From Tubulanus polymorphus (taxonomy: Eukaryota; Animalia; Nemertea): 64,000 nucleotides of DNA. Location of the stretch: contig NC_134036.1 in the NCBI RefSeq assembly GCF_964204645.1, positions 10,023,859 through 10,087,858 on the forward strand, in the 5' to 3' direction. Below the pieces are notes generated by a model. It worked only from the letters and a program-made list of their open reading frames with translations. It did no database searches and was not told the origin of the DNA. The position numbers were made by a program, and so were the translations under genes. The number at the start of each line of letters is the position of its first letter. Position 1 is the first letter of the stretch. Below, in pieces: positions 1 through 33,054 of the stretch.

Positions 1-422
1 AATTCTTTTAATAATTTATCTTGTTCTTCAACTGTTATATGGCCATTTAAACTTATTATATAATCTAGTGTGTTCTTTAATTTATTAATTTCTTTTATAT
101 TAGTTTTAATTTTTTCTTTATTACTTTTTATATTTAATTTTGAACTTATACCAGTTAAAACACTTGAGCTTAATCCTAATACGCCAATTGATATAGCTAA
201 AAGTGTTAATGGGCTGAATATTGCTAAAAATGTTATTACAGAACTAATTGTAACCGAACCACTTATAGTCAAATAATATATAATTTTACTTTTTAAATAT
301 TTTTTCTTTTTTATCTTTAAGTCATTTTCAAATTCTAATATTTGTTTTTCTAAATATGTTTTTAATTTAGTTTTATTTATATCATGAGTAATAATATCAA
401 TATTATCAACTTTATCTTCCAT
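1..422 (-). CDS. Polinton small membrane protein, open to the window edge
   Basis: Hand translation MEDKVDNIDII...IIYIILTISGSVTISSVITFLAIFSPLTLLAISIGVLGLSSSVLTGIS... has two hydrophobic segments and no stop before base 1. Preceded by T8-CTAAA-TAAATG. Not in the ORF track. Confidence 0.7.
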   Translation of the reverse strand, partial: MEDKVDNIDIITHDINKTKLKTYLEKQILEFENDLKIKKKKYLKSKIIYYLTISGSVTISSVITFLAIFSPLTLLAISIGVLGLSSSVLTGISSKLNIKSNKEKIKTNIKEINKLKNTLDYIISLNGHITVEEQDKLLKE

Positions 423-441
423 TTATTTAGAAAAAAAATTA

Positions 442-864
442 CTAATTAGTAAATTTATATGCTACAAATATAGCAATCACTGTTCCACCTAAAATCCATA
501 TTATTTCATATTTCTGTTGTTCTTTACTTGGGGTATAATAATCTGATAATTTAGGTTTGTATAGATGTAATTTTTCTTTATTGGTTACTGCGTTATATAT
601 ACTCATTGCATCATCAACTGATAGAAAATCGCTATGTGAAATATTCTGATCAATTAATTCTTTATTGATGTTATCCATATAGTTTTGTCTCTTTTCTCTA
701 TATTCTTCTGCAGCTTTATCATATTTCTCTAATGCTAAGTTATGTCTTTTTTGTTCTGTTAATGATCCATTTTTATCAATATGTTTAAATAAATAACCAC
801 CACCAGCAAATGCAAAAGCGTTGACAATTGCCGATCCTATAATAGTTATAATTGCAGAAGCCAT
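442..864 (-). CDS. Polinton-associated small protein (N-terminal hydrophobic segment, KRHNLALE coil, C-terminal TM)
   Basis: 140-aa ORF with a TAAATG start context; resembles small proteins of invertebrate Polintons. Confidence 0.65.
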   Translation of the reverse strand: MASAIITIIGSAIVNAFAFAGGGYLFKHIDKNGSLTEQKRHNLALEKYDKAAEEYREKRQNYMDNINKELIDQNISHSDFLSVDDAMSIYNAVTNKEKLHLYKPKLSDYYTPSKEQQKYEIIWILGGTVIAIFVAYKFTN

Positions 865-888
865 TTATTTAGCAAAAAAATTATGCAT

Positions 889-1099
889 TTATATGGGAGG
901 AATATATTTTTGTTTTTCCAAATAATCAATAGGTAAATTAGATAAAGTAACTGCTAACGTTATTTTTAAAATATCATTTATATCAAATCTATCAACATTA
1001 ACACTTCCCATTTTAAATACTTTTTTTGATACCAGTGAATAACCAACAGTTCCAACTGATAGTAATGCGCCATTATATAATCCAGTTATTATCACTCAT
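889..1099 (-). pseudogene. Polinton small hydrophobic protein (ends DYLEKQKYIP), frameshifted near the start
   Basis: The TAAATG-context ATG at 1099 is one base out of frame with ORF 889-1095. Confidence 0.5.
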
Positions 1100-1456
1100 T
1101 TATTTATCAAAAAAATTACTATCATCAAAATATTTAGTTAACTTATTTATGATTATTTCAACATTTATTTCATTACTAGTTTCATTTGTATATATTTCAA
1201 TTATTATTTTTTTAATATCATCGATGATAAAATCTTCATCTTATTCATAAAATCTTAAAGATTCTCTTATTAAATTAGTAATCTTTTTTACATTTAAAGT
1301 TTCTTTATCTATTGTTGTTTCATACTCGAATGTTGTTTCATTAGAAAATGCAATATTTTTGATACGTGTGATTATATCATTAACGTTAAATTTCATTTCT
1401 TTCTCACGTTTGAAATCAAACCCAAAACATATACTCGGTCCAACAGTTATATTCAT
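1100..1456 (-). pseudogene. Polinton hypothetical protein with an internal stop
   Basis: ORF 1241-1456 continues in frame past the TAA (DEDFIIDDIKK...NFFDK*) to 1100. Confidence 0.5.
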
Positions 1457-1472
1457 TTATATAATGAAAAAA

Positions 1473-2262
1473 TTACTCTTTACATCTTATAATTAATTCA
1501 TATATCACAGGAAAGTTATTCAAATCAATTAAATAACCATTATGATTTCTTATTTCTAATTTAAAATTATTAAATTTAGGAATGCAAGGTTTAAAATCAC
1601 ATTCAGCTAAATTATAATTTATTTGCGTTCCAAATTGTTTAACATTCTTTAATGGTAAAATGTTTAATATACTAGAATTACAAGTTATATCTTTAGTTGC
1701 TTCAAATTTTTTTGTTGGGTCAATTAAATTGCAATAAATATAAAAATGTGTAAAAGGTATTAAGCTTGATCTACCGTATATGTTTTCTCTAATATCTTTA
1801 TCTGGAGGAATTCCTAACAGTTTAGCTATAGGTTTTTTTCACCATGTAAAGATATCTTTCTATTGTATGTTGATAAAGTTTAAAATAATCATTATCAAAC
1901 TTTATTTTAATTTTATTAGAGCTCTCACTTTTTATGAATTTAATATTAAATTTAGAATCACTACCTAATCTAATGCGAGCTTTTCTATTAATTTCTTGCT
2001 CTAATGTTTCTATATTATATAATCCTGGTGTAAGCATGAGTTGAAAATTTTTTCTTTTATTCTTATCAAAAATAAAAAGGCTTCTATGTTCATCAGTTTT
2101 ATCTGATATATAGTAAAAAGAGTTACATAAACTTATATTAACTAATTTTAAATCTACACAATTCTTAAATTCTCTATCAAATTGAACTAATAAATTATGT
2201 GATTTATAATTTGTAAGTCTTCTTGAATCAACAAATATTCTGTATTCTTTTAATTCTACCAT
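1473..2262 (-). pseudogene. Minor capsid (penton-like) protein, frameshifted
   Basis: N-terminal IFVDSR...LKLVNISLCNSFY...PGLYNIETLEQEIN. C-terminal frame IYCNLI...ILNILP...LEIRNHNGYLIDLNN...ELIIRCKE*. Both match the Polinton penton pattern. Confidence 0.65.
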
Positions 2263-2330
2263 TATTTATAACATAAAAAAATTACCGCTCATCACTAAAA
2301 ATTAATTTCAATAAAATTTTTCCTTAATAA

Positions 2331-3650
2331 ATGGATGAGAAGATAGCATGTGAAATTTGTGGTGAACTTCTAAGAAAAAGTGATATGGCTCGACATATGA
2401 AAAAACATGATGAAAATTATAAACCCCCTAAACTAAACTGTCCAAGATGTAATAAATTATTCTCAAGAAATCATGTTAAAAAACATTCAGAGAAGTGTAA
2501 AATTAATGGCGCAACGGCTAATGTTGATAGTAACGAAAGTAATAGTAATTCTGTTGAAGTAGAACCTGAAGTTATTTGGAAAACACCTTTCTTATTCTAT
2601 GACAAGGATAATATAAAAGATCATTTCTGTGAGCCTTGTCGAATAAAATATAGCCCTGAAAATATAGAAGATTGGGAGAATCATCAATTTCGTAAAGCAC
2701 ATATAGATAAAATTTCTAATAAATTTGAAACTGAATTCAATGAAAGAAAAAATAATTTATTAGAAAAAATAAAATATGAGAAAACGTTACCAGATAATAA
2801 AGAAACAGTTGAAAAGTTAGAAAAACAATATAATGAATTAACAAGAAAAACATATTATTGTAAATATTGTAAATTGATTATTACAACAAGTAATTCAAAT
2901 CTACATAATAGAACAATAAAACATAAAGAAAACGTAAGAAAATACGAAGAGCTTAATGAAGATCTATTACCAATAAATTATAAACGAAAATGTCCACAAT
3001 GTAGTTATGCAACCTTAAGACAAGAAGGTACTGTGTTATTTTGTAATGAATGTGGATGGCAAAAGAATTTATGGAGTGAAGAAAAAACTAGAAATTTTCT
3101 CATAGATCCAAAAATAAATTATCTAGATGAAATTGAAAATGAAACATTTTCTATAGAAGATCATACACCAGAATATATGCAATGGCTTGAAAAAATAAAA
3201 ATAATAGAAAATAGAAATGGTGAAATAACTAAAAAAGATATTATAAAAACAATTATTCCGTCAACATTTAACACAAAACATAAGAAAATGTATTTATATT
3301 TATTATTTAACGATTATTATGAAAAACCTAAATTAACAGAAGAAGATATGGAAAATATAAAAAAAACATTCAAACAAATATTAATGTATCATTTGGAAAA
3401 TAGAATAACAGATTCAATTAATTATGAATTCTTTTTAAATAAGATTGTAAATTATTTAAACATAGATATTATAATTCCATTTGATGAATTAACAAACAAA
3501 AAGAAACAAAGAGAGCGAGATGAAATGTGGAACAAGATAGAACTTTATTTGAATGAGAAAAATGGAATGGAAGAAGAACCTGAACAATTAAATGAAAATG
3601 AAGAAGCCAATAGTGATTTCGATTATGATGATATTGATTTTATGTTTTAA
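2331..3650 (+). CDS. Zinc-finger protein with a poxvirus late transcription factor VLTF3-like C-terminal domain
   Basis: C2H2-like fingers and a CPQC...FCNECG ribbon, then H..EY.QWL, PKLTEE, SINYEFFLNKI and RDEMWNKI, which follow the VLTF3 motif order. Confidence 0.7.
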   Translation: MDEKIACEICGELLRKSDMARHMKKHDENYKPPKLNCPRCNKLFSRNHVKKHSEKCKINGATANVDSNESNSNSVEVEPEVIWKTPFLFYDKDNIKDHFCEPCRIKYSPENIEDWENHQFRKAHIDKISNKFETEFNERKNNLLEKIKYEKTLPDNKETVEKLEKQYNELTRKTYYCKYCKLIITTSNSNLHNRTIKHKENVRKYEELNEDLLPINYKRKCPQCSYATLRQEGTVLFCNECGWQKNLWSEEKTRNFLIDPKINYLDEIENETFSIEDHTPEYMQWLEKIKIIENRNGEITKKDIIKTIIPSTFNTKHKKMYLYLLFNDYYEKPKLTEEDMENIKKTFKQILMYHLENRITDSINYEFFLNKIVNYLNIDIIIPFDELTNKKKQRERDEMWNKIELYLNEKNGMEEEPEQLNENEEANSDFDYDDIDFMF

Positions 3651-5166
3651 TAACCATAAGGTAATGTTTTTATACCATCATCTAAAATATGCCTTTTATC
3701 ATCAAATGGACTTAAACTAGTTTTTTTCAACTTCATTAATGTACATCTCGTGATCTTCTGATCTTAAACAATTCATTTTGTGTTTCATTACAATTGATTT
3801 ATATAAACACTTTATATAATCTTGAAATTCTATATGTTTATCAACCACATGTTTTGTTATTCCTTTTAACTTTTTAGCTTCATGATCTTTTGTTCTGTAA
3901 CTATACATTTTACTTCTTATCCCAACAAATTCAATCATTTCATCGCCCCCTAATTCATCTTTAAACTTACCAGGAATCTTTTTATTATCATTGCTAAATA
4001 GTTCATGATCTTTGGGATAATTGCTAAAATCAAAATGATGTTTTAATGTTTTTAAGTCTTTTGTTATGTCATTTGTCTTGATTTTTAGTATGTAACTGTC
4101 GGTATTTTTTTTGGATTAATGGGAACCCAGAATTGAATGTTCCATCATATGTTGATAAATCATAAACATAGTCAGTTGGGTTATATATTTCAAATGAATC
4201 TTTAACTTCTTCTGTTAATTCTTTTTCTACATGCCTCAAATTAAAACAATTTGGTTTAGATTTAATCAACCCAATATTCATATTGAAGCCTAATGAATTA
4301 CATAATATATTCAATCCTGATATAGCAACTTTTCCTTTCTGTGCAAAGGTTATCTTTTTATCCTTTGTAAATTTTTGAGTGCCATCTGCGGCATAGAATC
4401 CAATGAAGAACCATTTTCTTAAATTATTTTTTGCATTTAATACATAATCTGGTACTATCTTTTCTTTAGTTGAAGTATTACTTTTCACTATTGCATGAAT
4501 ATAGAATTCATCAATATATTTTATAGCAAAATCTTTAGGATTATTTACAAGTACTCAATAAACTGCTGATGATTTCATAACATCCATGATTTTAAATGTT
4601 TTATTTGGATAAACTTCTTCACAGAATTTCTTAATTCTTTCTAATAATTTTAAGTCTTGATTGCATAAATACCAACAATATTTATTAACCCAAACATAAT
4701 TATACACACCTGCTGAACCATCACCCATGAAAAATCCTTTGATAACACATTCTTTTTCTTCTAATGTTTCGGGTTCTATGTTATAAATATTATCAATAAT
4801 TTCATCAAATGACATATGATTCATTCTTTGGAAAAATCTTTTATGTAATAATTCATCTCCAATTTTTATATCAGTTGGTTTTATTTCATCACCATTTCGT
4901 TTAATTAAACTATGATCTTCTGTAACATCTACAAATCCTAATTTAGTTCTAACTCTATAGATTCTAATAATATTCTTAAATTTTTTCCATCCATTTCTTG
5001 TCCAAACATCCATTAATCCATTTATTTGTATTAATTCTTTTTCACCATATGAAATATAACATTCATTTTGTTTTGGAATTAGTTCTGAAATTCTTCTTAC
5101 CAATATTTTATTATTACATTTTAATAATTTTGGGGTGTCAGCTGTTACAGAATCAAAATATAATAT
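3647..5166 (-). pseudogene. pPolB C-terminal segment (motif C, with intein)
   Basis: ILYFD|intein|TDSYIL...FDFSNYPKDH...GKFKDE...FVGIRSKMYS...KLKGI...SLSPFDDKR...TLPYGY*, with frameshifts. Its stop overlaps the stop of the convergent VLTF3-like gene. Confidence 0.9.
4104..5151 (-). other. Intein with a LAGLIDADG homing endonuclease, inserted in pPolB YFD|TDS
   Basis: Block A SVTADTP, block B VDVTEDHSL, LAGLIDADG-like GFFMGDG and GFYAADG, block F YVYDLST, and C-terminal QKN followed by extein Thr. One in-frame TGA (4555-4557) and one extra A in the 4105-4112 homopolymer. Confidence 0.9.
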
Positions 5167-5986
5167 TTAGGGTTTTCTGTTTCTTCACAGAAAACCCTAT
5201 TGAAATTCGCGTGATTATTATTATTTTTTTCCCTTTTCCACATAGTTTTTGTTAAAAGTGTAAAGGCTTCCTTACCTTACCGCAGTCGCCGATACAATCC
5301 GCATGATGTCCTTCAGCTCACTTCAATCTCCAGATACTGCATGGGAATTTTGATAAATCCACGTTATAAAGGCACTGTCGAGCCGTAAACATCGGAAATT
5401 TGGCTCCGTTCAATTAGTAGCCATGTTGTGTTTTCTTACCGATATTTCTCTCTTCTTTTCGAGGAAGAGCTATCGAATAATTCCCTCTCTTCTCCACAAT
5501 CAATTTCAAAGTCAATTTTATGAATTTATTGCTCAGCGGGTCCGAGTCTAAGAATTTACGAGTCCGGCGTTCGCGCGTCTGACAGGTTTACGGGCATTTG
5601 TTTGTTACCACTTTAATATTTTTGATTTCTTGTTATTCCGGTTATTTCATTTAAGTATATTGCTGATCAGTTCATGTAACCAAAAGCGTCAATAAATAGA
5701 TTTTGAATTGATCAATTTTAAATCAAGGTCGTTGAGTCGCGGAGGGCTGCTAGAATTACGTTCGTCTCAGAGAGAAAACAAACGACAGAAAAGTATCAGG
5801 TGATTATCGATAGCCTACTACGGTACACACAGTTGACAAACAGTGTTAGGCCTGTGCCGGTTGGTGCGTACTGGGAATAAATATACTGGTTAGTCAGTTG
5901 GTTCGGTTGTGAAGTGTGGAAGCTAAGAAAGCCTACCGCAGTACCGGTATTAATTTGTCTATAGGCCTGTTACCAGTAAGTACGTA

Positions 5987-6356
5987 GTTGTTACTCGTAT
6001 GTGACTGTATGGTGATCTCCACAGGTTAATCGTACGTGAGTTCCCTACTAACGCCGTACGCGAGTTCCTAGTAGCCAATACCATTTTTTAAGTACGAAGT
6101 TGTTACCCGTAGGCCCTATGTGCCAGTGACTGTACGGTGATATCCACAGGTTAACCGTACGTGAGTTCCATAAAAAGGCCGTTAGTGAGTTCCTATAATC
6201 TGCAAACGTGCATGCGTGAAAGAATAGAGTTTGGGTTAGGTGAGGCTAGGCTATTTGTAAATCAAATTTTATCCACCCTGCAGTTACGTTCTGTGGCACA
6301 GTGGGTAAATCACTGGACCTGTAGAAATCACCGTACAGTCACGTACAGGTAACAAC
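5987..6356. mobile_element. Small TIR element (MITE) nested in the HINE
   Basis: About 40-bp imperfect inverted repeat GTTGTTACyyGTAyGTGACTGTAyGGTGAT at both ends, with the left end duplicated near 6098. Confidence 0.5.
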
Positions 6357-6561
6357 AGCGTTTTAAGTACCGGGTATTAAGTGAGTACGACAAGCCTACC
6401 ATGCCTATGTACTACAAACACAACTTTTTCCCTCTCGTCGGCCCTACAGTGATGTTACTATAACTGGTGCAGTTATAACATGGATAGGATTTGGCCAGGA
6501 CTAGCCTAAAGTCTAATTCAGTCTATGTACTAATTCACTCGATAGGCCTATTTTTAAAACA

Positions 6562-6730
6562 GGGGTCATTCATTTATTACGTACGCATAAAATTTGATTA
6601 TTTCAACCCCCTCTCCCTCTGTACGCAAAATCGGCCATTTTTTCATGTACATTAAGCATCATAGTACGTAATTGCCCTGACCCCTCCCCCTCCCCATCCC
6701 CTAATGCGTACGTAATAAATGAATGATCCC
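6562..6730. mobile_element. PIF/Harbinger-type MITE
   Basis: 27-bp TIR GGGrTCATTCATTTATTACGTACGCAT (1 mismatch); 3-bp TSD ACA at 6559-6561 and 6731-6733. Confidence 0.8.
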
Positions 6731-8165
6731 ACAATACAGTGAAGTATTCACACGCAGAAAGGCTAATTGATTTGAGCCATGTGATTAAATTTGGCCAGGC
6801 CTTCTCTGACCTGCTGACATTAATAGTCAATGTGGTCACGGCTTGTATACCAGAAATAATTGTAGGCCTGTACATTTTGCTGTTCGTAGGTTTGGTATAC
6901 CGATTTCTCCATTCTTGACTGATAAGTGTACAGTATAGCGTACGCATTATAAAATTGTTCCAATGGGAATAGGGCCTATTGATTGGGCTTATTATTTCCT
7001 GCTTTAGAATACTGAAATAAGCCCAACGTTCATTCAAATATCCAACATCGGTGAAAGTTTGATTACTGTATACATGTACTGTAGGTTTTCATGTTGTATG
7101 AATATTTTGCAGTTCAAATGGGTATGATGCTGATTCCAATGTCGAATGCATGCAGTTAGATGGTCAAGGACAGTCAACACCAAGATATCTCTCTTCGACC
7201 GATGTTGCACCATAGAAGATCTGATTCTTTCAACTCAAGGAAAGTGATTCAACACGATCGACATAACACTGGAATAGGTTTGCAGTAACTAACAGTTCAT
7301 TTCATTTAGTCCTATGTACTTTTTAGCCAATTTGGATTTGATTGTAATTGAAACACTGGAACAAAAGACAAGTTGAAAAAACACAAGTTATGCTTGATTC
7401 TCATGTCCAAATTTAATTCAAATTCAAATTTATTTTATTACACCATATTTACAAAGCATATCATTGGTTCATACAATAATAAAAATTAGGACAGAACAAA
7501 TATTATTACAGAATTTCCAAAAAGGCAATGAATTTCTATAACTAAATGAACATTATTTTTCTAATAACTCAGATCAAGAGTGACTTTCCCGTTTATTAGG
7601 AAACACACCCAACTAGTGAAATAGGTTTGATTTAAACATATGTTGCAGGTATCAATTGTTTATCACTATAATATTTTTAATCCATAAAAGCCAAAATCAA
7701 CATCAGCAGGAAACCAAGACCAGATCAATTCATACTTTATTGATTGAATCTACACTACAATATATGTATTTATTCAAATATTTCAATAAAAACATTAACT
7801 TCTTAAATCTATTCTAAATCATAATACGTTCTTATCTGTAAATTCACTCAATCTATCGACTCAGCAGGCGCTTAAGATGAGTTCTTAATAGGACAGATCC
7901 ATTTTTAAGCATGGTGATAATACAGTATCATGATGTTTGAATGCCAAAATAAATGCCTGGTCAAATAAATTAATATTTGTTGATTGTACGTCCGCGTATG
8001 TTCGGTTTCAAAGCTGATCATATTTGACGTTTACACAGTGGTAGCATATTAGGTTCGAATCTGTCAATGCATTTTATTCTATGTATCGATATTTCAATCT
8101 ACTACAATTCCCATCTTCCTGAATGGCTTTGCAGAAAACCCGTCATCGCTGCTTCGCAGCTATAT

Positions 8166-9712
8166 TTCAATATGCTTTTCCCCAAAAAGTGGTTGTAAAA
8201 CATTATAATAAAAATCATACATTAATAATTTTGATATTTCTAAAACAGTTGAACCTATAAATATTGGTTTATTAAATTTCATTGAAGTTTTTTTAATTTA
8301 ACTGCTGTTAAATAATCTTCAAATCTTTTATTTCCTAAATGTCAAGGACTTGATTGTAAATGTCTTAATCTTTCAGAATTATTTACTAATTCAATATCAT
8401 TTCTATTTCTAATATTTTCACATGTTTTACCATAAAAACTATTATTCATTAATTTGAAGAAATCTTTTTCAAAATCTGTTTTTGATATGGTTCTCTGTTG
8501 AGTATTAAAATCTATATATTTTTCTAACCACTTCGATTGATTAAATTCAATATATCTATGTACTTTCTTTAATTTCATTCCTTGTTTTAGATAAAATTTT
8601 AACATTCTATAATGAACAATATAATTGTATTTATTATTTTGAGTAAGTATTAATTTTTCTGTAAAAACATGATCTTTCGGTTTTATTTTCTTCTGGTATT
8701 CACTTAAATAACTATCATCTACAGTTAAATGTTCTGGGCAATAAGGTAAGTTTCTTGTTTTAAACTTTATATTATCAGGATATTCTAAATCAACTACAAA
8801 GAAATAACCAATTGGTGCTTCATCTTCTAAACTCATAATTGCGCTTTCCCAATTAGTTTTATCACCATTTTCAACTTCTGTTAATATAAAATTTTTATAT
8901 GGTTGAGGTTGCATCATTGCCCAACCATATAAGTTATTGGCGTCAATATATAATAATTTATATTCATCATTTGCTTTAAAATATCTCCCATAACACCACT
9001 AATTCCACCTCTAATTGATTTTTCAAATAATAAAACCATATCTGGTTCTTTTAATAAATCTAATTCTACATTTGTATATTTTAAACCACATTGCCAGGTT
9101 AAACCAGGACTAGAGTAGCAATAACAAGGATCAACATTAAAATGATTCAAATTAACTTCTCTAAATTTTTCAAATATGTCAGCCAATATCATAACATTTG
9201 ACTTTAAATATAAATCAACTAATTCACCATGATTTTTCATCTTAAAATGGTTCCAAATATTTAATGTTCTCTTAAACACTCCGTCTTTCACATACTCCTC
9301 TTTTAATTGATCATAAAATTGATCTTTTAATAATTCTGTTACATTAAAATCATTGTGTGTTTTATAAAATGAATAAGGAATTGCACCTTTATATCTCAAT
9401 AATTTAAAATCTTGGTCATTTGGATAATAATATCGAGTTATTATAAAATCATTATCAACTAAACTTTTTGATAAATTATCTAATGAACTTGCTAGAAATC
9501 TATAAGAATCTAAAAATCTAATGCAACCAAATTGAAATGAAATATAATTTTCAGAGGTTTTAGCTAATAGTTTAAAATCATATTTTCTTACATTTACACC
9601 ATTCATAGCATTATATTCTTCTATTTCTTGATTAATTGTACCAAATTTCTTTGATAATTGTTTTATAAATAGATGGGTATCATAGCCTGATAAATTATGA
9701 AATAATATTGGT
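8166..9712 (-). pseudogene. pPolB middle segment (exonuclease and palm)
   Basis: HNLSGYD, RFLDSYRF, YKGAIPY, IRGGIS, DANNLYG, FFKLMNNSFYGKT and NKPIFIG motifs across frameshifts. Confidence 0.92.
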
Positions 9713-10856
9713 CACGTACGTACAGACAATACGAATCTTGCCAACTTTAATTATTGATCGTATTAATCCATATCGCGCACTGAGCTTCGCGCCATTTTGT
9801 GCTAATGCTGTGAGATATAGACTTGGAGTGACTCGGGAGTGCTCCGAATACATCGTCAGTAAATGTGGGATTCGAACCTAATATGATTAGATTTTTAGTA
9901 AACATCCGCCACTAGTTCGTAGAATTTTCGGAATTTCTATTAACATTCTCGTTTTTTGTCAATCCTGAATTTCGTAACCCGGAAATTTTCGACATTTTCC
10001 GCTACAAATGTGCGATTTCTATCCATACAATAGGCCTAACTTAAAAAAACAAAATGTGACGAACTAGATATTAGTATGTAGTTTATATAACTATGTAATT
10101 TTATGGGTCTCTGTCATTGTATAATGTCAAAAAAGTGACACTCGTCTGTAAATTTGCACAATTATTAAAAATTTTTTTGGCGCCCATAATAATCGTTTTA
10201 CGTTTCGTCTTTTTACATTGCACATAGTCACTAAACTGCTTATTTCTACTGTTAAGTTTTTTAAACAGTTGATTGAGATCAATTAGATTTCATTCTATTC
10301 AAGTGAAATTGTGACCTTGTTAAAAAAGAAGTGAAAATTAAGATGGTATTCAAAATCAAGCAAAATTAAATTTTATTCGACAGAGTTATGTTTAACGCAG
10401 GAGCTTTTATGTGTTAATAGTGATATGTCTTCAACTTCAAAACAATTCATTCTCATAGACAGCAAAAATGACACTTAAATAGGCCTAAACTAGAAATTGT
10501 TGCAGTCTAGGTGGGCGAGTGATAGGCCTCTATCGTCTACTATAGTTTCTCGAGCCTTGGCGCTTATCAAGTCTGTCTATTTCATATAGTATAAGCCTTT
10601 TACGGCTTTTCGACCTTGTAAAATTACCAAATCAAATACATGTAGTTTGATTAATGTATAGGCCTAGGTCCTGCATTTGAGGTCTCTCGGGCCTCCAAAT
10701 GGTAATAACTATTGGTACATTTTTTGTAATTGTAGATGTATTTGTCATAGTCGGAATAGATTTGTCATTCAACATAGTCGGGTTCGTCATAAAGGATTGA
10801 GCAGAGTCGTAATCGATGAAGGGATTCAGTAATCGTTGAACACAGGGGTAAGTTTC

Positions 10857-11456
10857 GGAGTCGTAATCGTTTAACGGAGTCGCAATCGTTAAACGGAGTC
10901 GTAGTCGCTGAACGGAAGCGTAATCATTGAACGGAGTCGTAGTCGCTGAACGGAAGCGTAATCATTGAACGGAGTCGTAGTCGCTGAACGGAAGCGTAAT
11001 CGTTGAACGGTGTCGTAGTCGCTGAATGGAGTCGTAATCGTTTAACGGAGTCGCAATCGTTAAACGGAGTCGTAATTGTTAAACGAATCGTACTCGTTAA
11101 ACGAGTCGTAGTCGCTGAATGGAGTCGTTATCGTTTAACGGAGTCGCAATCGTTAAATGGAGTCGTAGTCGCTGAATGGAAGCGTAATCGTTGAACGGAG
11201 TCGTAGTCGCTGAATGGAGTCGTAATCGTTGAACGGAGTCGTAGTCGCTGAACGGAGTTGTAGTCGCTGAACGGAGTCGTAATCGCTGAACGGAGTCGTA
11301 ATCGTTGAACGGAGTCGTAATCGTTGAACGGAGTCGTAGTCGCTGAACGGAGTCATAATCGTTGAACGGAGTCGTAGTCGCTGAACGGAGTCGTAATCGT
11401 TGAACGGAGTCGTAATCGTTTACGAAGTTGTAATCGTCAAACCTAGTCGTAATCAT
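10857..11456. repeat. 19-bp CpG-rich minisatellite (CGGAGTCGTAaTCGtTGAA), about 30 units
   Basis: Tandem units with alternating variants, flanked by the direct repeat GAAGGGATTCAGTAAT.GTTGAACACAGGGGTAAGT. Confidence 0.9.
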
Positions 11457-12996
11457 TGAAGGGATTCAGTAATTGTTGAACACAGGGGTAAGTCAATGGA
11501 TTTAAAGAAATTTTTAGGGCTATAGTTAGAACATACATTGATATATTGTTTAATTGATTTTTGTAGGTCAGAAAGCAGTAGACCGCGAGCCCTGGGGCAG
11601 GGTAGCTGGGAAGGTTACCAGCATGTTGGGTTCTGCAAGAAAGATCTACTATGGTACAGCGAGGAAAATAATATCATTTAAAGAAAAAATGGCTAAGCTT
11701 CATAGTAAGTGATTCTGCAGCATTTTGTATTAGATGTTTATTATTTATTTCTATTGTTCATTACATTATGACTCTACCCTGATTATTATTTTGGAAAGTT
11801 GCTCTGATAATTAAAAATGACTTATGGCAAAGATTGGCAATGATTTCTTAATTCCGCAATTGGTGGTAACCTTGTGAAATAATGCCAAAAAATCAAGTCA
11901 ATTGTATTTGAAAGATTGTAAATTCAATGGAACTGTTGTTCTAACAAACTCCGGTATATAATAGTTTGTGAAAAATATAATTCGCAATAATAGGAATACT
12001 GCTCGTTATAGCAGACAGTCAATTTACCGATCAATTTTGTTAATTGCTGTGAAGTTTATTTTGACAATGTCCATTGAATGTTTGTTAAAGACTAGTTGAT
12101 AAAAATTCAAGTTGATCAATTCTCTAATTTTACATATGTTGACTGTTTTTTTCTTTTATACATCCATCATTTTCAATTCATATTGTTGTTTCAATAAAAA
12201 CCTTTCAAAAATTATATATGACTGTGTTTGTCTTTCTTAGCCATCTAATTCAAGAAAGGTTACTTGGGGTTCTTGGATCAAATTTATAGCAGGATGGTAA
12301 TTTTATTCATAAAGAATGTATCTGGATCGAAATATTCCTCTAACATATCGTATATTATGGGTACCCTGTGTATAAATTATTTACAATAAGTGAAAGGAAA
12401 TGAGTCTCAGGATAAAGTTTTTGTAAAAGAAGTGTGGTTCTGACAGCTGTATTATAAAGGTGAGTTTCTTGACTATTTCAAAGTTCATTTTCAAACTAAC
12501 TTGAGTCTGTCCTTGGGTGAAATTGAAGTTTGTTACAGGACAATTGTTAGTCAAAATAGTGTTCCAAAAGTGGTAGCATTTGACATGGTGAAATATCGAA
12601 TTATCACTAACAATTTCTATCTGATGACAGACTGGTTAATTTTTCTTTTGCCTAATTAATCATTTAATTTCCTCTGCATGCAACATACCAACAAATTTAA
12701 AACTATTCCATTTTCAGCAAGTGGTAGACATAGAATTTATTGAAATCATTGTTTCACAATAGACAAATTGCGTCAAACTAAATACATGTATTACCTTATA
12801 TATAATTAATTAAAAGCAAAAAATGCTGATACCTTTATGTTTTAAATTGTAATATTACAAAATGTTAGTTGCATTAACAGTTTTTAAAGTACGCTCGTGC
12901 AAGCTGCACCATATAAATTTTATTTACAATAATTACTGGGTTGTACCTTAAGTATTTAATCTAATGAGTTGAATGTTCTTTCAATCAATCTAACAG

Positions 12997-15560
12997 GCTC
13001 TAGGAGAAAATCAGCGAAAAGTGACATGCAGTTGGCAGATGAAAGCAATGAAACACTTTTAACCGCAACCCCTTCTTCAAATGATCACCTGACATCAACG
13101 CCATCATCGTCAACACTTTCATCACCCATAGAGTCTATAATCCCCCCTGTTAGTACGCCAATTTTAAAAAGTTCGGAAAAATACATACTAGAAGATAAAA
13201 TCGAATGTTTGAGAGCAGAAATGAAAAGACTACAGGATATATTGAAAAACCCGAATCTCCTAATGATTACGTCAGGCACTATCAATGATGAAACATTTGT
13301 GGTACAAGAATTAAACAGCGCTAATCAACGAAAAAGTTCATTTATATGTACAAAATTAGATATACCAACTGTGGGGTCATCAATTGCCAGTCGACAGACA
13401 CTTGAGAAGAGAGCTTCTAAATTATTTTCTGTAGCGAACATCATTTCAGCCAAGTCCAAATCAACAATCGATACAGCTGCTACAGTTAGTTCGTTGTTTA
13501 ATCAGAATCAGGAGCTTAAAGAATCAATTTTTTCAAAATCTCCGGAGTTGTGTAAACCTCAGAAGCTATCTCCTGAAGAGTCTGTCGACTTGAGGCTTAG
13601 TGCTCGATTGACAATGAGTCAATATATTTCTATTGACTCAATCCTTAAAAACAAAGGTATCTATGTATTTCCCTCGGTCAATAAAATACGAGAAGAGATA
13701 AAGATTCGCAATGAGGATTTCACGAATAATTTATTCGTTGGTGAAAAGTTAATGGAGGTAAATAGTAGATCTCATGAGTTTCAAAGTGCCCCATTTGATG
13801 TAGTCACTAATCTGAAACAAGCGGTTGAACTTACCCTAAAAAAAATCTCGGCAAGTAATGCATTCGTGGATGATCCTAATTTCCATAATGAGATTTGGAT
13901 GAAAGTCGGCATTGATATAGGTGGGGGTTCAACAAAAATGGTGTATTCAATACTCAATAATAAACTATGTAATAGTCCCGACCAGACACAGCTAATGGGG
14001 TACTTTGAAGCCATAGATTCAAACGAAAACATTGAATCTATTTTTGGGCGATTTCGTGAACAGTTGAATGATCTCAATCACGTAGCATTTAATGGCGATG
14101 AAAAGTCTCTACGCATCTTTCACATAGGGGACATACATTATCTTTGTCAAAATTTAGGGCATCAGGGATCTACTGCCTCGTTTCCATGTTTATTTTGTAA
14201 GGTCAGGCTTGAAATTCTCAGGAAAAAGGATGCCACCCCCCATAATTCTAGTCATTCACCCTTTGAAATGCGAACGTTAACTCACTATCATGAAAATGCT
14301 GCAAAAGCAAAAATGTCTTCGCCTGGGCCAGACACTTTCAGTGTAAATGATAATATGATTTTCCCCCCTATAGATATGGATCATGTCGTACCGCCGCCTT
14401 TACATATTTCACTGGGCTTAGGCCTTATGTTTTTCAACATGTTGGAATCAAAATGTAAAGTCCTAGACCGTGGAAATTTATCTGAAAGAGATGCTACCCT
14501 AGACGAAAAGTGGCAAAAAGCATCAGAGGATGTGATCAAATTAGAGAGAGAAATAACTTCAGTGAGTGAGAACATCAATGAAAAAAATGATATTTTGGAG
14601 CTATTAAAAAATTCGAAAAAGAGAGGTCGCTGTGCCATAAGCTGCACAGCAAAAATTTGTATTATACGATGTATACAGAAGCCTGAGCCAAACCATTTTG
14701 TTGAATGCGCTGAATGCGAAATGCCCTATCATTTTCAGTGTGTAGGTGAGCAGAAAAATTTCAAGTGTATTGAATGTTTAACCGGGAAGGTCGAATCTGC
14801 CGAAAAAATCATAAAACTAAAATCTGATGAAATTCGGCATCTTAAGTCAAAATTGACTGAACTAAAAACCTCCCTTGCTGTGGCGAAATCACTTCTAAAT
14901 GAAATACATAAAGAAATTGATGCTACAATGGGTCCTATCACACGAAGTTTAAACAAAACATTGAAATCAATTGGTGTTGACAGACAAGCATATTACAGCC
15001 AGAGCTTTGTAGGAAACCATGTATATAAAATGATCCAAATCAATGAGAAAGTCAATAATCCTGCAAAGCTCTGTGCTGTGTTAAAAAAATATCCAGCAAT
15101 TCAAACACTTTTTTTAACACTGTTTGAAAAATTTCATGCGATGTATGTAATTTACAATGCAAGTAGATTTTTGTCGAATAGCGAAATTGACATGCTTGAA
15201 CGTTTATGTCTTGATTTTGGATCATGGTTTCCAGAAAATTTTCCGGAAGCTAATATAACGCCGAAATTACATGTTCTTATATATCATGTTGTGCCATTCA
15301 TTCGAATGTGGGGTACATTGGGTCTTTTTAGCGAGCAAGCTCTTGAATCGAAGCATGCGTTGATAAATAGAGATGTTCGCACGTACTGAACCATTCGTGA
15401 TAAAGTTCGCCGCACTAAATTAATTTTCCTCAACCAGGCACTCTATGCAACGAAGTCGATTAAACGTATTCCGATAACGCGTAAATGCCAATGTGGTTCC
15501 TTCTTGAGAAGCGTTAATGATAAACGCATATGCGATGGTTGTAAAAGTACATCGAACTGA
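12997..15560 (+). pseudogene. RAG1-like DDE transposase with an internal PHD-like finger; premature stop at 15387-15389
   Basis: KVGIDIGGG, IGD..L...GHQG.....PCLFC, PPPLH, ITPKLH and SEQALESKH motifs. Likely splice acceptor TCTAACAG ending at 12996. The frame continues past the TGA to ...RKCQCG...ICDGCKSTSN*. Confidence 0.8.
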
Positions 15561-17625
15561 TTTTCGAACATGCTGATCTCCAGAAACCTGATTCTGAAAG
15601 AGGAGATTTGTTAATAAACCTTTGTACATAAATAACTGCTGGATGTGGTTTAAGAGCAGCTTGTGAGCATGTTCAATTTTGTGAATATTATTTTGATGCA
15701 AGGCATTGAATGAAAATTATTATACAGCAAATTAAATATAAGTGAAATCAACTCACCAGTAATCTTATTCAATCATAACAAACATGTTGAAAATAACTTC
15801 ATAAATTCTTTCAAACCTGAAAGTCAAAATAGTGTTATTGATCATTTACACATATTCTTATCCACGAGCAAGGCGTACATGTTTGTATTATTAGAACGGT
15901 GAATAAATAAAATGACCTTACTTATGAATAACTTCATCTGTCACCCTTGAAAAACATTCTTTCAGTGTTTAATGATCTGTAATGTATAATAAATCAGAAA
16001 TGTAATGGAAGCTTTATGAATATTTTATAGTGCCGGTGATAAATAATAACTTTTTCTTTAAATTAGCATTAATCACTTATTTTTACACGCATGCTCGGCT
16101 TAAATGCCTCTTTGACGAGGGAGAAAAATGTATCCAAGCTAATTACAAACTATTTGAATCAAAAAGCTAATTTTGGATTTGTAATTAAGTAGCGGTTCCC
16201 TTTTCCCCAGAGTCAATTACCTCAGTTTATGGCATGCCTCGGACTTAGTTTGACCCAGGACAATTGTCTCAGATTGTTGCATGCCCCGATCAACTTTTAC
16301 CCCAGACAAGAGATGATTTATTGCCTTGGATCTTCGCATGCCCAGATGGAATGGATTGCCTTGGATTATTGTGTGCTTTCTAGGCCCACCTGATGACTCC
16401 ACGTTTGGTTGAAGGTCACGATCGCGCGCGATAGATTTGTTCGCGGATACCAAAAAATATCGATTTCCTAAAAGGTCACGATGAGTGCGCGAAGCTTATT
16501 CTTAGTATTGCTCTAGAGATGTTCGTGAATTGTTCAAATCACGATATCCAACGTACGAAACTAGTTCGGCACTTTATGCAACTAAGTCGAATAAGCGTAG
16601 TCCAATTGTCCGTAAATGCCAGTGCGGATTTTTTTCAAAAATATCGTCTCCGATACGAGGCGGTAAATCTGAAATAACAAGATTTTTTAATAAATAATAC
16701 ACTAAAAAGTCATAAAAATTATTTACAGATATTGTTCTACTTGCGAGCAGGGCTTTCATGCTTGTATTGTATGAGAATGGCGATCGATTAAACTTACTTG
16801 AATAGCTTTGTCTGTCCCCTTTGAAAAAACTTTGCTGTCTTAAAAAAACCTAGGCCTATAATATATAATATGATAGGGCTTACGAAATGTACTGGAGGCT
16901 TTAGGCTTAGATTGACTATAATCGCACGGCGTCGATTGCCACAGATTATCAGATTATCGCCCACTCTCTAGGCCTACCTGACAATATTACAACTCTTAGT
17001 ACAATTCATTGTGGTCACAACCCATCCCTGCTTCGACTGCCCCGAAAAAAACAAATAACTGAGGGAATTTACTAGCCTCGGACGGGTCAAATTATCTGAC
17101 AGTTTGCACTTCAATATACATGAAATAGGCCCATCGATGGAGCTAGGCCTGAAGGTGAATGCGGTTAACTGTTGATACGAATCTTTTTTTCATTATGGGT
17201 TGACATCTTAACAGAATTACTTCAATATAGGCCGCGGTCTGAGTTAAGAATTTGAAGTGGAAATATTTCCGGGTTTCAGCGAACCCGGAAGTAAGTAAAC
17301 AAATTCAGTCGTATTTTTACATTTATTGGGTCAACATGCAGCAAACATACACCATTTAACGGCCACAAACGTAATTCTTTACTTACATTAACAAATGACA
17401 CCCATTAAAGCAACTGGAATGGTTTCAAAGGCAACCAATTCATGATACACTCCGATATTTTAACTATCGTGTCTTTGCGAGGATGACTCCACGTCTTGCT
17501 GAAGATCGTGATCGCGCGCAATAGATTTGTTCGCGGCCACCGAATAATATTGATTTCCTTAAAGGTCACAACAATTACGCGAAACTTCAAGGTCTCTTAT
17601 TCTTAGCGTTGTCTGTACGTACGTG

Positions 17626-19611
17626 TGGTACGAAATTAACTTTCTTAGCTTGTAAATTGCAATCTTCATGAGCAGTTCCACGATATTTTGAATTTAAATG
17701 ATCATGATCTCTAACTTTTTTATCAAATGAATAAAAACGTTTTTCACAATAACAACAATGAGTTGCATAATTAAAATCAATTTCATCTTCTTTTGTCATA
17801 ACTATTCTTTTATTTTTGTTTAATAATTTTGCAAAATCACTTTCTAATTCAATCATTTTATCACAAAAATCATTAACTACATTTTCACCTCTAAAAGAAA
17901 TATATTGACTTTCATATAATTCAGGATAATTTGATTTTATGTAAATTCCATAAGCAGCAGCTCTTTGATGAACTTTTTTAATTGTATTTATAATTGGTGG
18001 GTCTTGAATTATATCTTCATTTAATTCATTTCCTTTATCCATTGATTTTAATAATTGCTTTTTGTTATATATTTCTTTTCTATCTTGATCAGTTAATTCT
18101 TTATTCAACGATTCAAAATCCCCATAAATTACAAATGGAACAATATTTTTAAATTTATGATTAGTAAATTTCAATTCATAATCTTTTTCTGTTGGCATTA
18201 TTAATTTACAAAAATCTTTATTATCACATAATTCTTTATGTTTTAATAATGTATTCTCAGTCATAAATTTAGATAAACATTTTCTACATAGATAAATTTT
18301 ACGATGATGATCACTTTCTGTTCTAAAGAATAAATCAATTTGTTTTAACCACATATAATGTTCATTTTCATCTTTTTTGTAATATAACAAATCTATAACA
18401 TTTTCATCATCATAATATTCTGTTAAATATAAAGCTTCCAATGTATAATCTTTAATATTTTCACCTTTTGTCTTTGGTAATTGCATTAATTCAAATACAT
18501 TTATTTTTAAATTATTAACTTTTTCTATTTTAGGAATCATTTTTATAGTTACTGGATATTGATCAATTTTATATAATGTTTCATATTTCCGGTAATTTGT
18601 TATTCTAAAACTATGTGTCATATCTTCTGTTGGGTGTAAGCAACTAATAATTGACCATAGATAACATTTATTATCTTCATTTTGAACATTTATTACTGCT
18701 TTTGTTGTAAATGGTAATTTAATATAAGAAGATGCTTTAATATCCTTTTCTGTTGTAAAGTTTGAATCATTTTTAAACATTTTATTACTTTTTGATGTTT
18801 TATTTCTTTTTGTATTATAAACATTTAAATCTAAATATATAATTTCATTCAATGTTAAGCCAGAACCCTCAAAATATCTTTCTTCAATATGACGTTTAAA
18901 TTCATTAAATATTTTTTCTAACTTCTCTTTTATTTGTGTTTTTGAAATTATTTCTTCAGAGTGTGTTTGAATATTATAATTCATTTTTTCTTCTGACTTT
19001 ATAAAACTTACTTTCCCAGAGATACTAATTTTTGGATATTCAACATCTGTTATCAAATCTAGTATTTTTTCTATTATTTCATTAAATTTACTATAATCTT
19101 CTATTGTTGTTCCTTTAAAAAATCTAAATATAATAGCTGCAGGACCAATATTACTATGTAATGTTTCTGAGATTTCAATTGTATCTTTTATTTCTAGTGA
19201 ATCAATATAATTTCTAACATTTTCCATGTAAGGTTTATTTGAAATGGATTTAGTTTTTGCATTTGGTTTTTTTACTTTTTGAGGTTTATCGTCAAAATAA
19301 TCTTTTCCTAAAACATTATTACTCAAATTTTGGCGGTGTTTTTGTGATTCGAGATGTCTGTTATAATTCCTTTTTACTATAAATTCATTACAAACTTCAC
19401 ATTTTATTTCATCCACATTCATATTTTCTAATCTTTCTTTTCTTTCATTGGAATTTTCTGGAGTTTCAAAATCTATTACATTTTTTATATGATTTGCAGT
19501 TTTTTCATGTCGTGTTTTATGAGATGTATCAATGTATTTTTTACAATATTGGCAATAATATTGATTTTTATTAACATTATTGTTTTCTGGCTGGTGTTCA
19601 TTCTCTCCTAT
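17626..19611 (-). pseudogene. pPolB N-terminal segment (zinc fingers, terminal-protein/vOTU-like region, ExoI, EndoVII-like HNH insert)
   Basis: SYIKLP...NEDNKCYLW...HYMWLK, YGDFES and CCYC...VRDHDH...YRGTAH..CN. The frame extends 63 codons above the track ATG to an ATA at 19611. Confidence 0.9.
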
Positions 19612-19696
19612 TTATTAGGAAAAAAAATTACTTGTGGTGATGAGTGGTGTCTCGCCCTCTCGCCCTCTGGTATGAAACCCATATCTTCCAATTACT

Positions 19697-24339: not shown

Positions 24340-24994
24340 TTAAGATTCAACGTGTTTTTCATTCTGTGTTGAATTCCATAATTCAACAAATGTCTTTGCT
24401 TTAACCACTTGATCTAAATATAACTGTAAATCTAGTTTATTAGATTTAATTATATTTTCTTTCTTTTCAAGAGGTCTTAAATTTTTCCAATTCAAAATTA
24501 GTTTTTTTATCGTATTCACCACTCATATCAAATTTAGAAATCGGCAACACGTGATCAATATGAAAGTATTCACCATAATTATCTATATTCATTTTATCGT
24601 CGAATTGATATATTATCCATGATTTGAGAAATTCATCTGTACAACCCAACAAATTAGATAGTGTTTCTAAATGCGTTTCTTTGTTGAATAATTGTGTTAA
24701 TCTAGACCTTAAACATTGTTTCATTTTAAAATTAAGATCTGTTTTATATCTTCCTCTCATATATTCTGTCATATAATCATTATAATGTTCTCTATTATCT
24801 GCTCGATATTGCTTGGTATATAGTTTAATACAAGTTTTGCAGCAATATTGAAAACCATCTTTGCTAATCTTACGCTTACTAAATTCTGTTATAGCTAATT
24901 TATCTAATTCACATTTAGAACATTTCTTGTAGTATATATTTATAACACCAGTGTTATTTGTAATATTGATAAATTGTGATTGTTCTGGTTCCAT
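24340..24994 (-). pseudogene. Giant-virus-type zinc-finger/HNH (EndoVII-like) endonuclease, frameshifted
   Basis: KKCSKC...CKTC, LRSRL...LLGC...NYG..FHIDHVLP, then NWKNLRPL...N..KSNK in the adjacent frame. Confidence 0.75.
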
Positions 24995-25074
24995 TTTAAT
25001 ATCAAATATTTGTTACTAAATTGATTTTAGAATTTATCCATTTATATGTTATTCATATATATGAATATTTTAAG

Positions 25075-28157: not shown

Positions 28158-29075
28158 AGTAATTGAAAAATAGCGTTTTCACACCAGAGCACGAGAGTAC
28201 GACAAATCACTCATCACCACTAGTAATTTTTCCTTACAAATGGGAGACTGTGAGTACCAGACAGAAAAATTGATGTTAATAAAAATCAATATTATTGTCC
28301 ATACTGTAAAAAGTACATCGATAAATCTAATAACTCTCATCACGAAAAAACTGCAAATCATAAAAAAATGTTATAGATTTTGAAACACCAGAAAATTCAA
28401 ATGAAAGAAAAGAACAATTAAAAAATATGAAAAAAAGATAAAATTAAATGTAATGTTTGTAATGAAGTTTATAGCAAAAAGGAATTATGAAAGACATCTC
28501 GAATCACAAAAACACCAACACAATTTAAATAAAAATATTTTAGCAACAGAATATTTTGATGATAAACCTCAACAAGTAAAAAAACCAGCTTCAAAAACTA
28601 AATCTATTTCAAATAAACCTTATATAGAAAATGTAAGAAATTATATCGATTCACTAGAAATAAAAGATACAATAGAAATTTTAGAAACATTACGTTGTAA
28701 AATTGGTCCTGCAGCCATTATATTTAGATTTTTTTAAGGCACAACAATATATGTTTATAGCAAATATATCGAAATAATTGAACAAATAATGGACTTTGCT
28801 ACAGAGTTGAATATCCAAAAATTAGTATTTCTGGAAAAGTAAGTTTTATAAAATCAGAAGAAAAAATGGAGTATAATATTCAAACATATTTTGACGAAAT
28901 AATTTAAAAAACACAAATAAAAGAGAAAAAAATATTTAATATTGAAGAAAGATATTTTGAGGGTTCTGGTCTAACATTGAATGAAATCATATTTTGGATC
29001 TGAATATTTATGATACAAAAAGGAATAAAGCATCAAAAAGTAATACATTGTTTAAAAATGATTCAAAATTTTCAA
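28158..29075 (+). mobile_element. Polinton fragment D: terminus plus decayed pPolB 5' end (relative of element A)
   Basis: AGTAATTGAAAAATAGCGTTTTCACACCAGAG terminus, colinear with 19696 to about 18760. NKPYIENVRNYIDSLEIKDTIE is nearly identical to copy A. Confidence 0.85.
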
Positions 29076-32517: not shown

Positions 32518-32649
32518 TATTATTTAGATATCAAGGAATCGAAACAACTTATCAAAAGCAGCGAGGAATGAAAAAGGATGACGTTGATCGAAGAAATGGA
32601 AGAGGATTATAAAATATTAACCAATTTAGTAAAAAAATATGTATAATAA

Positions 32650-32964: not shown

Positions 32965-33054
32965 GGGTAAAAAAAATATTTTAAAGCGTAAGGTTTCAGC
33001 GAACTCTAACTCTTTTTGAATTTTAACCTATTTTAATAAAAATTTGATATATAA

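Follow-up and report, generated by a model that had tools for sequence, protein, structure and literature searches.

The question raised by this locus is how animal Polintons are transcribed, and with it whether they behave as autonomous viruses or depend upon a helper. Within the 64-kb stretch of DNA analysed here (the window), a sequence-only reading had picked out seven sites resembling poxvirus late promoters, and all of them are found as written, those at 422, 864, 1099, 1456, 2262 and 19611 on the minus strand and that at 2331 on the plus strand. Judged from gene content, the element that carries them is of the Maverick-Polinton type, with a pPolB gene here and, in the related locus L102, an rve integrase (E 1.5e-10) and an A32-like ATPase (Pox_A32, E 4.6e-11); the element is cut by the left edge of the window, and the latter two genes lie outside it.

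Start sites and the genes behind them

Five of the sites lie close together on the minus strand. The first (420..442) reads GTAA, T8, 5 nt and TAAATG and heads an ORF of 140 or more aa (3..422), a small conserved gene with two predicted membrane helices which runs off the window and has a weak SLATT_fungal match (E 0.009) below the cut-off. The site at 862..884, with T7, 6 nt and TAAATG, takes the top PWM score and heads a conserved 140-aa gene (442..864) with 32 homologues at 30-74% identity. That at 1097..1119 heads a gene which is broken in this copy (890..1099): the ORF at 1099 has only 8 codons here, and the sequence shares 85% identity over 67 aa with the 73-76 aa gene of the six related loci L102-L107 (1733-1960 in L102). 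A short gene (1241..1456), whose N-terminus is homologous to genes of 110-126 aa in the relatives, lies behind the site at 1454..1476. The fifth site (2260..2285) has T7 and TAAAT followed by an ATG 3 nt beyond the usual place; no same-strand gene lies directly upstream of it, and behind it is a second broken gene (1479..2262) with two pieces homologous to L102 565-1329. On the plus strand, the site at 2306..2333 is dual, combining an A-rich core 11 nt before TAAAT, which is intermediate-like, with a T5 tract, and it heads the VLTF3-like gene.

The seventh site (19609..19631, minus strand) marks the 5' end of pPolB. There is no ATG in this copy, and the frame is open for 674 codons, running into a pPolB ORF of 611 aa. 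The gene as a whole (3660..19611, minus strand) is present as pieces at about 17587-19611, 8160-9620 and 3660-5120, with host repeats and frameshifts breaking it up and an intein-like insert in the last piece (3660-5120); one piece matches DNA_pol_B_2 at E 4e-5, below the cut-off, and another has a weak Endonuclease_7 match. A decayed copy of the pPolB site (28223..28242, plus strand) lies at the homologous position of another pPolB 5' fragment, in inverted orientation.

A signal fused to the start codon

The motif had been said to precede most genes of the element, and this proves to be the case: TAA stands immediately before the ATG at 36 of the 41 genes defined by homology in the window and the six related loci, a set that contains orthologues and whose genes are therefore not independent, compared with 76 of 1,040 other ATGs in the same sequences. 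With a T-tract required as well, the counts are 28/41 and 10/1,040, and among the TAAATG sites themselves a T-tract accompanies 28 of 36 at genes and 10 of 76 at controls. Enrichment over an AT-matched background, which had been set as a check, is also seen, with 28 occurrences against a shuffle mean of 0.58 (maximum 5). The pattern GTAATTTTTTN{4,9}TAAATG matches the window three times against 0.02 expected, and a count of three was reached in none of 100 shuffles. A matrix trained on 40 starts from L102-L107 only, and scored without the TG of the ATG, places the seven sites at ranks 1-7 across the whole 64 kb. In positions 1-3700, six sites exceed the matrix threshold, one of which (888) is no gene start, against a mean of 0.38 (maximum 2) in 100 dinucleotide shuffles.

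The form of the motif needs some revision. It had been described as T5-8 followed by a spacer of 5-7 nt, and whilst the T-run and the spacer hold, the loose spacing does not, since the register is fixed: the upstream T-tract profile peaks at -10 from TAAAT, where T is found in 37 of the 41 genes, and the T-run begins 14-19 nt ahead of the ATG in 32 of 36 run-bearing sites. The start codons are unusual in another respect. Animal start codons usually prefer a purine at -3, and contrary to this T occupies -3 in 41 of 46 starts, which in itself would be an unfavourable context for starting translation in an animal. Across this Polinton family the conserved signal is joined directly to the ATG of nearly every gene, and our literature searches found no report of a poxvirus-late-type motif in Polintons.

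Within the family the site is common to the pPolB, MCP-like, ATPase and dNK genes, and in L102 alone TAA abuts the ATG at 14 of 15 ORFs of 100 or more aa, compared with at most 35% of ORFs in 81 other loci, which are mostly viral contigs chosen for one motif match. In L102 the site is missing from the integrase gene's first ATG, and the distant relatives L108-L112 have the T-tract form at some genes only. A DNA-pattern scan of viral contigs returned 101 stretches, and the motif density of the element is absent from all 80 of those listed, each of which held a single match. Scans of viral contigs with the 140-aa gene and with the MCP-like gene gave no loci, and a phage collection gave no match. 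The MCP-like gene (L102 5877-7124) has 98 homologues, and its alignment found no sequence match in the PDB; the relative L110 matches Capsid_N at E 0.005. Four sequencing runs indicate that the family is multi-copy, with many diverged copies in the host, and the element sequence that we examined holds no RNA polymerase gene.

The VLTF3-like factor and the predicted promoter classes

The suggestion that the element has a VLTF3-like factor of its own stands, in that the gene is real. The ORF at 2331..3650 (plus strand) encodes a 439-aa protein with N-terminal zinc fingers and a C-terminal zinc ribbon and cyclin-like fold, which is predicted to be a VLTF3-like, TFIIB-shaped factor. It receives an Atlas score of 0.96 with the Pox_VLTF3 clusters. 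Its structure model (pLDDT 72.7) has cowpox VLTF3 as the best Foldseek match (E 8.8e-6, TM 0.56), entomopoxvirus VLTF3 follows at E 9e-5, and poxvirus VLTF3s make up three of the top five fold matches, in a shallow ranking where those of Megaviridae and others come next at E 5e-4 to 1e-3. The best PDB match of the domain is a middling one to TFIIB (Z 6.8, rmsd 4.3, 95 aligned). The Pfam Pox_VLTF3 profile gives no match to this ORF up to E 10, a whole-protein search found none among 7,995 candidates, and a search of representative proteins returned four matches, of which three are real.

In vaccinia late promoters a T is conserved at -10 from TAAAT, as described in PMC11980589, and the spacing between core and initiator is given as about 6 nt for late and about 11 nt for intermediate promoters (PMC12722222). 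The late geometry claimed for the element is matched here, with TAAAT overlapping the start codon, a T at -10 within the T-run and a spacer of about 6 nt. The motif fits a poxvirus late promoter in initiator, core and spacing, from which we predict a promoter role.

A second, A-rich class appears to correspond to the vaccinia intermediate promoter, in which an A/T-rich core precedes TAAA by about 11 nt. Of 32 A-rich cores, 9 are followed by TAAA(A)TG, in every case at 10-12 nt and against a background of 2.8%, and eight of the nine open ORFs of 78 or more codons, both VLTF3-like genes among them, in a class that was defined after its sites had been seen and several of whose sites are homologues. 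Besides the dual site, examples include that at 24992..25020 (minus strand; A-rich core, 12 nt, TAAAATG), heading an ORF for an endonuclease VII-like protein in a related element, and four on the plus strand: 30598..30625, before the 5' fragment of a pPolB from a second element family; 32625..32652, heading ORF 32650-32964; 33031..33057, heading a 722-aa ORF (33055-35223) for which family searches gave no match; and 60435..60462, heading a 509-aa pPolB 5' ORF of the second family. The placing of the VLTF3 gene in this class resembles vaccinia, where A2L is an intermediate gene. Unlike in vaccinia, the motif belongs to a Polinton which is integrated and has an integrase and in which no RNA polymerase was seen, and the late-type site also serves pPolB and dNK, functions which in vaccinia are mainly early; no early-type promoter class was seen in the element.

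Which polymerase may read the site

Since a vaccinia-spaced signal at nearly every gene is found together with a VLTF3-like factor, the element may well be activated by a helper, and we give an even chance to the reading we prefer, that the motif is a promoter and that a poxvirus-type virus infecting the same cell supplies the RNA polymerase for it, the element then being a parasite of the virophage kind. By analogy with vaccinia, the T-tract would be the promoter core, transcription would begin within the AAA of TAAAT, and slippage would give a 5' poly(A) leader, which would also replace the T at -3. Until infection by such a helper, integrated copies would mostly be silent. The element's own VLTF3, behind its intermediate-like promoter, could then join or replace the factor of the helper and bias its polymerase towards the late-type genes of the element. 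More tentatively, integrated animal Polintons may be the endogenous virophages of an undiscovered invertebrate poxvirus-type virus, with a two-step mini-cascade in which an intermediate-type promoter drives the element's VLTF3 and this steers the helper's polymerase onto the late-type promoters of the remaining genes. If a helper is indeed used, then a poxvirus-like virus of this host, so far undiscovered, is predicted, and the many integrated copies are possibly defensive in the manner of Mavirus.

There are precedents for such an arrangement. All Mavirus genes are described as having the CroV late promoter in common, and Sputnik and Guarani as using the mimivirus late promoter (PMC6723459). 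Like Mavirus and the EMALEs, the element is a small integrating pPolB/rve element in which nearly all genes, the polymerase gene included, follow a single late motif of helper type; it differs from Mavirus in having TAAATG rather than TCTA, an animal host and a VLTF3 of its own. PLVs have been reported with entomopoxviruses (Barth et al. 2024, PMC11296320); these too are Polinton-like elements and proposed poxvirus parasites, but they are described as coming from occlusion bodies and as having divergent capsids and a tyrosine recombinase or no known integrase. Their link to poxviruses rests on co-isolation, whereas ours rests on promoters, and the words 'promoter' and 'motif' are absent from the main text of that report.

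It is possible, and in our view somewhat unlikely, that host RNA polymerase II reads the site instead, together with the TFIIB-like VLTF3 of the element, the element being autonomous in the nucleus and in no need of a helper, and factor and promoter both being inherited from, or common with, Nucleocytoviricota. This is favoured by the fold of the domain, a zinc ribbon and a cyclin-like part whose best PDB match, a middling one, is TFIIB. Medusavirus (PMC8400408) and the ariadnaviruses (bioRxiv 2026.08.29.747986) depend on the nucleus, have no RNA polymerase and retain VLTF3, so that a VLTF3 gene alone does not imply a helper. The integrase and the many diverged host copies also indicate that the family reaches the nucleus. 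Maverick-Polintons and adintoviruses share pPolB, rve integrase, A32-like ATPase, an MCP-like gene and integration into animal genomes with the element (PMC8502044, PMC11131425, bioRxiv 2026.06.19.733378), in sources whose main texts lack the word 'promoter' and give no account of the poxvirus-type signal; a subgroup including coral polintoviruses has VLTF3, as here, and the coral viruses are described as transcribed in ordinary host transcriptomes with no known helper (PMC11131425). Virions of animal Polintons have reportedly not been observed (bioRxiv 2026.06.19.733378). The yeast elements pGKL1/2, which are likewise linear and pPolB-bearing, have a TAAAN initiator, from which 5' poly(A) leaders arise; unlike the element here, they are described as having their own RNA polymerase, an early-type ATNTGA core, no capsid and no integrase (PMC6211774). 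Nuclear transcription of the element, if it occurs, would mean nuclear use of VLTF3 with TAAAT and bear on the origin of the poxvirus late system.

Against it, VLTF3 and pPolB are themselves preceded by this initiator, leaving in view no early promoter of plainly host type from which a cascade could begin, the vaccinia match holds for both spacings, and T stands at -3 in nearly all starts. Coding strands also tolerate AATAAA at about 6 per kb; it is not avoided there (65 vs 64.2, 57 vs 49.7 and 31 vs 28.4 expected), in a weak test whose nuclear control comprises just three genes (2 vs 4.4) and in which AATAAA is mildly depleted in the second element family (19 vs 25.2, z -2.2). AATAAA or ATTAAA occurs near the stops of 22 of 33 genes, which is uninformative given the high A+T content and overlap with the motif itself. 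The poxvirus early terminator T5NT is rarer than expected in coding strands (5 vs 10.2, 5 vs 8.9 and 5 vs 8.6), and is also depleted on the opposite strand (89 vs 105.5, 52 vs 71.6 and 40 vs 48.4).

A helper from elsewhere in the Nucleocytoviricota (irido-, asfar-, ego- or pitho-like), with a late promoter coincidentally of the same shape, seems improbable. The motif is not unique to poxviruses, since one gene of L063, a giant-virus contig, has a near-identical site, and the contig shows similar T-rich starts, with TAA before the ATG at 6 of 17 ORFs; VLTF3 is pan-NCLDV, ASFV late promoters are described as bipartite too and a ranavirus TAAAT lies upstream of DNA polymerase (PMC5294985). However, a strict start-overlapping TAAATG with T at -10 is the form described for poxvirus late promoters, ASFV having TATATA and CroV TCTA, and poxvirus VLTF3s head the fold matches.

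That the motif is no promoter at all, and instead terminates the gene upstream, couples stop to start or serves as a splice or trans-splice acceptor, is very unlikely. In its favour, TAA is a stop in frame, and the upstream gene's stop codon sometimes supplies the AA ahead of the T-run, with 8 of 28 runs starting 0-3 nt past such a codon. We nevertheless reject a terminator, as the run keeps a nearly constant distance from the downstream ATG (sd 2.8 nt) and a widely varying one from the upstream stop (sd 120 nt), and is present at divergent starts with no same-strand gene upstream (2262 and 2331 in the window, 10981 and 11054 in L102). Stop-start coupling is rejected because TAA doubles as the upstream gene's stop in just 2 of 36 cases, and a splice acceptor because AG occurs within the last 10 nt at 1 of 46 sites. 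Chance in AT-rich DNA, which the element's G+C content of about 23% and the frequency of bare TAAATG in the window might suggest, is refuted by the shuffles and by the ranking of all seven sites with the held-out matrix.

A conserved motif at Polinton gene starts

The motif is real, conserved and not a product of chance. All seven sites claimed by the sequence-only reading, each a T-tract, a spacer of about 6 nt and TAAAT(G) at the gene start, are present in the window exactly as written, six on the minus strand (starts 422, 864, 1099, 1456, 2262 and, for pPolB, 19611) and one on the plus strand (2331). The strict pattern GTAATTTTTTN{4,9}TAAATG has three matches in the window where chance predicts 0.02. 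Starts 422, 864, 1456, 2262 and 2331 each open an ORF; the frame at 1099 stops after 8 codons, and the DNA behind it is an 85% match to the relatives' gene over 67 aa. At 19611 the ATG is absent in this copy, with 674 codons open and running through the 611-aa pPolB ORF, and in an inverted second pPolB 5' fragment the corresponding position still holds the site in decayed form.

Genes were defined without the motif, from ORFs of at least 65 aa in window positions 1-3700 and in six related loci (L102-L107), with a homologue in another locus or a length of at least 200 aa qualifying 41 of 46 ORFs; these include orthologues and hence are not independent. TAA directly precedes ATG at 36 of the 41 genes, compared with 76 of the 1,040 remaining ATGs of these sequences, at least five T fall within the seven positions -16 to -10 at 30/41 against 95/1,040, and both coincide at 28/41 against 10/1,040. 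Shuffled upstream 30-mers gave a mean of 0.58 and a maximum of 5 with both features; the motif is enriched over AT-rich background. Given the shared orthologues, L102 was also counted separately, and alone has TAA|ATG at 14 of its 15 ORFs of at least 100 aa. Three of the five ORFs outside the gene set have the site; the other two, antisense shadows, lack it. When 86 loci are ranked by TAA|ATG share, these relatives are the top five (75-100%) and the sixth reaches 35%. A held-out matrix, built from 40 starts of L102-L107 only and leaving the TG of ATG unscored, gave the seven sites ranks 1 to 7 across the 64 kb, and the site is absent at three long host or transposon ORFs. Among more distant relatives, L108 has a full site ahead of its pPolB-side ORF and A-rich starts at its structural genes, L110 has starts of TAAA or TTAAA type, and L112 (55% GC) has no such starts.

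A terminator, a coupling signal and a splice acceptor were considered and ruled out, since the T-run is locked to the downstream ATG (offset sd 2.8 nt, 36 sites, against 120 nt from the upstream stop, 28 sites) and also occurs at divergent starts, AG falls within the last 10 nt at 1 of 46 sites, and only 2 of 36 TAAs also end the gene before. The start context has T at -3 in 41/46 and G at +4 in 30/46; animal start codons usually prefer a purine at -3. Initiation within AAA followed by slippage would place an A at -3.

Geometry and proposed promoter classes

Judged from sequence, it is very likely that the site functions as a promoter. The upstream profile is maximal at a T 10 nt before TAAAT (37/41 genes), and in this the motif resembles vaccinia late promoters, where TAAAT(G) lies across the start codon and the tenth upstream nucleotide is a conserved T amid less conserved Ts (PMC11980589). 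In vaccinia, core and initiator are ~6 nt apart in late promoters and ~11 nt apart in intermediate ones, the class to which A2L, of the VLTF3 family, is assigned (PMC12722222).

Of the 32 occurrences of a second core, TTT(T/C)A(A/G)TAA(A/C)A, 9 have TAAA(A)TG downstream, where the background rate is 2.8%; the pattern was picked with the sites already in view, and these are in part homologous. The spacer was permitted to be 8-17 nt and is 10-12 nt in every case, and 8 of the 9 sites open ORFs of at least 78 codons. They lie ahead of the VLTF3-like gene in the window and L102, ahead of one further L102 gene, and at five starts of related element fragments (25.0, 30.6, 32.7, 33.1 and 60.5 kb); this is suggestive only of the A-rich core as a second promoter class. 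The L102 orthologue of the 2262 gene has the A-rich class in place of the T-tract class, and just upstream of the 2262 start (window 2263) 339 reads of DNA run X5 diverge from the window sequence. The promoter ahead of this gene may vary from copy to copy.

The VLTF3-like factor and the candidate polymerases

The VLTF3-like factor proposed for the element was recovered as a domain of the 439-aa ORF at 2331-3650 (+). Residues 210-415 score 0.96 against Atlas Pox_VLTF3 clusters (219/256 features), and a Pfam search of the ORF gave no VLTF3 match. The predicted structure (4-row alignment, pLDDT 72.7) matches cowpox VLTF3 (E 8.8e-6), followed by an entomopoxvirus VLTF3 (9e-5) and, further down, by VLTF3s from the rest of Nucleocytoviricota; among solved structures its best match is TFIIB, of middling strength and tied by cyclins (Z 6.8, rmsd 4.3, 95 residues). 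Some Polintons were already known to carry VLTF3 (PMC11131425).

We give an even chance to the site being read by a poxvirus-type helper. One late-type site stands at nearly all genes, pPolB included, a near-universal usage shared with Mavirus (PMC6723459); both vaccinia spacings are found; and PLVs within entomopoxvirus occlusion bodies offer a precedent (PMC11296320). A more doubtful alternative is that host Pol II reads the site with the element's own VLTF3. Weighing against a helper, VLTF3 is retained by nuclear viruses without an RNAP (medusavirus, PMC8400408; ariadnaviruses, bioRxiv 2026.08.29.747986), and ordinary transcriptomes contain coral polintovirus transcripts (PMC11131425). Favouring one, AATAAA is not avoided in coding strands relative to synonymous shuffles (L102, 65 vs 64.2; L103-107, 57 vs 49.7; window element, 31 vs 28.4), although the control is very small, at three host or transposon ORFs (2 vs 4.4), and the second pPolB family is mildly depleted (19 vs 25.2). 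That another NCLDV is the helper is improbable. L063, a giant-virus MAG contig encoding two NIF phosphatases, counts against the poxvirus-type reading: 6 of its 17 ORFs have T-rich TAA|ATG starts, and one of these is almost identical to the window motif.

Mimicry of helper promoters is already known as such; mimicry of a poxvirus-type helper by an animal Polinton that is integrated and encodes VLTF3 itself would be new. Among main texts outside subscription journals we found no published report of the motif, one search listing just a paper on the Guarani virophage; an earlier mention elsewhere is possible. The word 'promoter' is absent from the accessible main texts of PMC11296320, PMC8502044, PMC11131425 and bioRxiv 2026.06.19.733378.

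The Polinton, its relatives and a second family

The sequence around the sites is the right-hand part of a decayed Polinton, whose pPolB (-), between ~19.6 and 3.66 kb, is broken into pieces by higher-GC repeats. Window 1-5133 is covered ~55-1,150-fold by 12% of one DNA run's reads, mostly 90-99% alike, a sign of numerous diverged copies. An intein-like insert (4070-5120, -) adjoins the polymerase motif C residues in the 3' part of pPolB; on visual inspection its ends look Hint-like, and it has a weak match to LAGLIDADG_3 (E 0.021). A literature search on inteins in Polinton pPolB listed one paper, which concerns cryptophyte PLVs. An intact 787-aa ORF (13026-15389, +; DUF1280, E 1e-21) is likely a transposase inserted inside the gene. 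A rhodopsin-family GPCR ORF lies at 26482-27429 (E 8e-19), from which the host is taken to be an animal.

A 140-aa gene has 32 homologues, and 8 metagenome loci were retrieved with their alignment. L102 (11.5 kb) shares the gene block and adds an MCP-like gene, an rve integrase, an A32 ATPase and a deoxynucleoside kinase, the last (10340-10981, -; E 1.7e-31) preceded by a late-type site and oriented divergently to the VLTF3-like gene. Neither the window element nor L102, both of which are incomplete, showed an RNA polymerase gene. Polinton MCP-like genes also occur in contigs filed as bacterial or archaeal genomes (L110, L111, L112; protein P0126), probably as eukaryotic or viral contamination.

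At 60460-63841 the second pPolB family is represented by a 509-aa 5' ORF (+), at 56% against the first family, and by a DNA_pol_B_2 piece of 280 aa (-). An intact 722-aa ORF (33055-35223, +; 21% G+C, TAAATG start) has no family match in Pfam, PHROGs or Atlas, and carries spaced motifs that, by eye, we take to resemble Rep_trans-type initiators. A homologous gene pair (20792-21499, -, and 31351-32079, +; 38-45% identity) has no TAAATG starts and no assigned function. Three long imperfect palindromes (25055-25223, 30269-30545 and 59971-60400) share outer arms and differ in their interiors, and each immediately precedes an intermediate-like site with an element fragment's first gene. Folded as DNA they give long hairpins (-55 to -90 kcal/mol, values without a shuffle control), which may serve the second family as end structures or replication origins.
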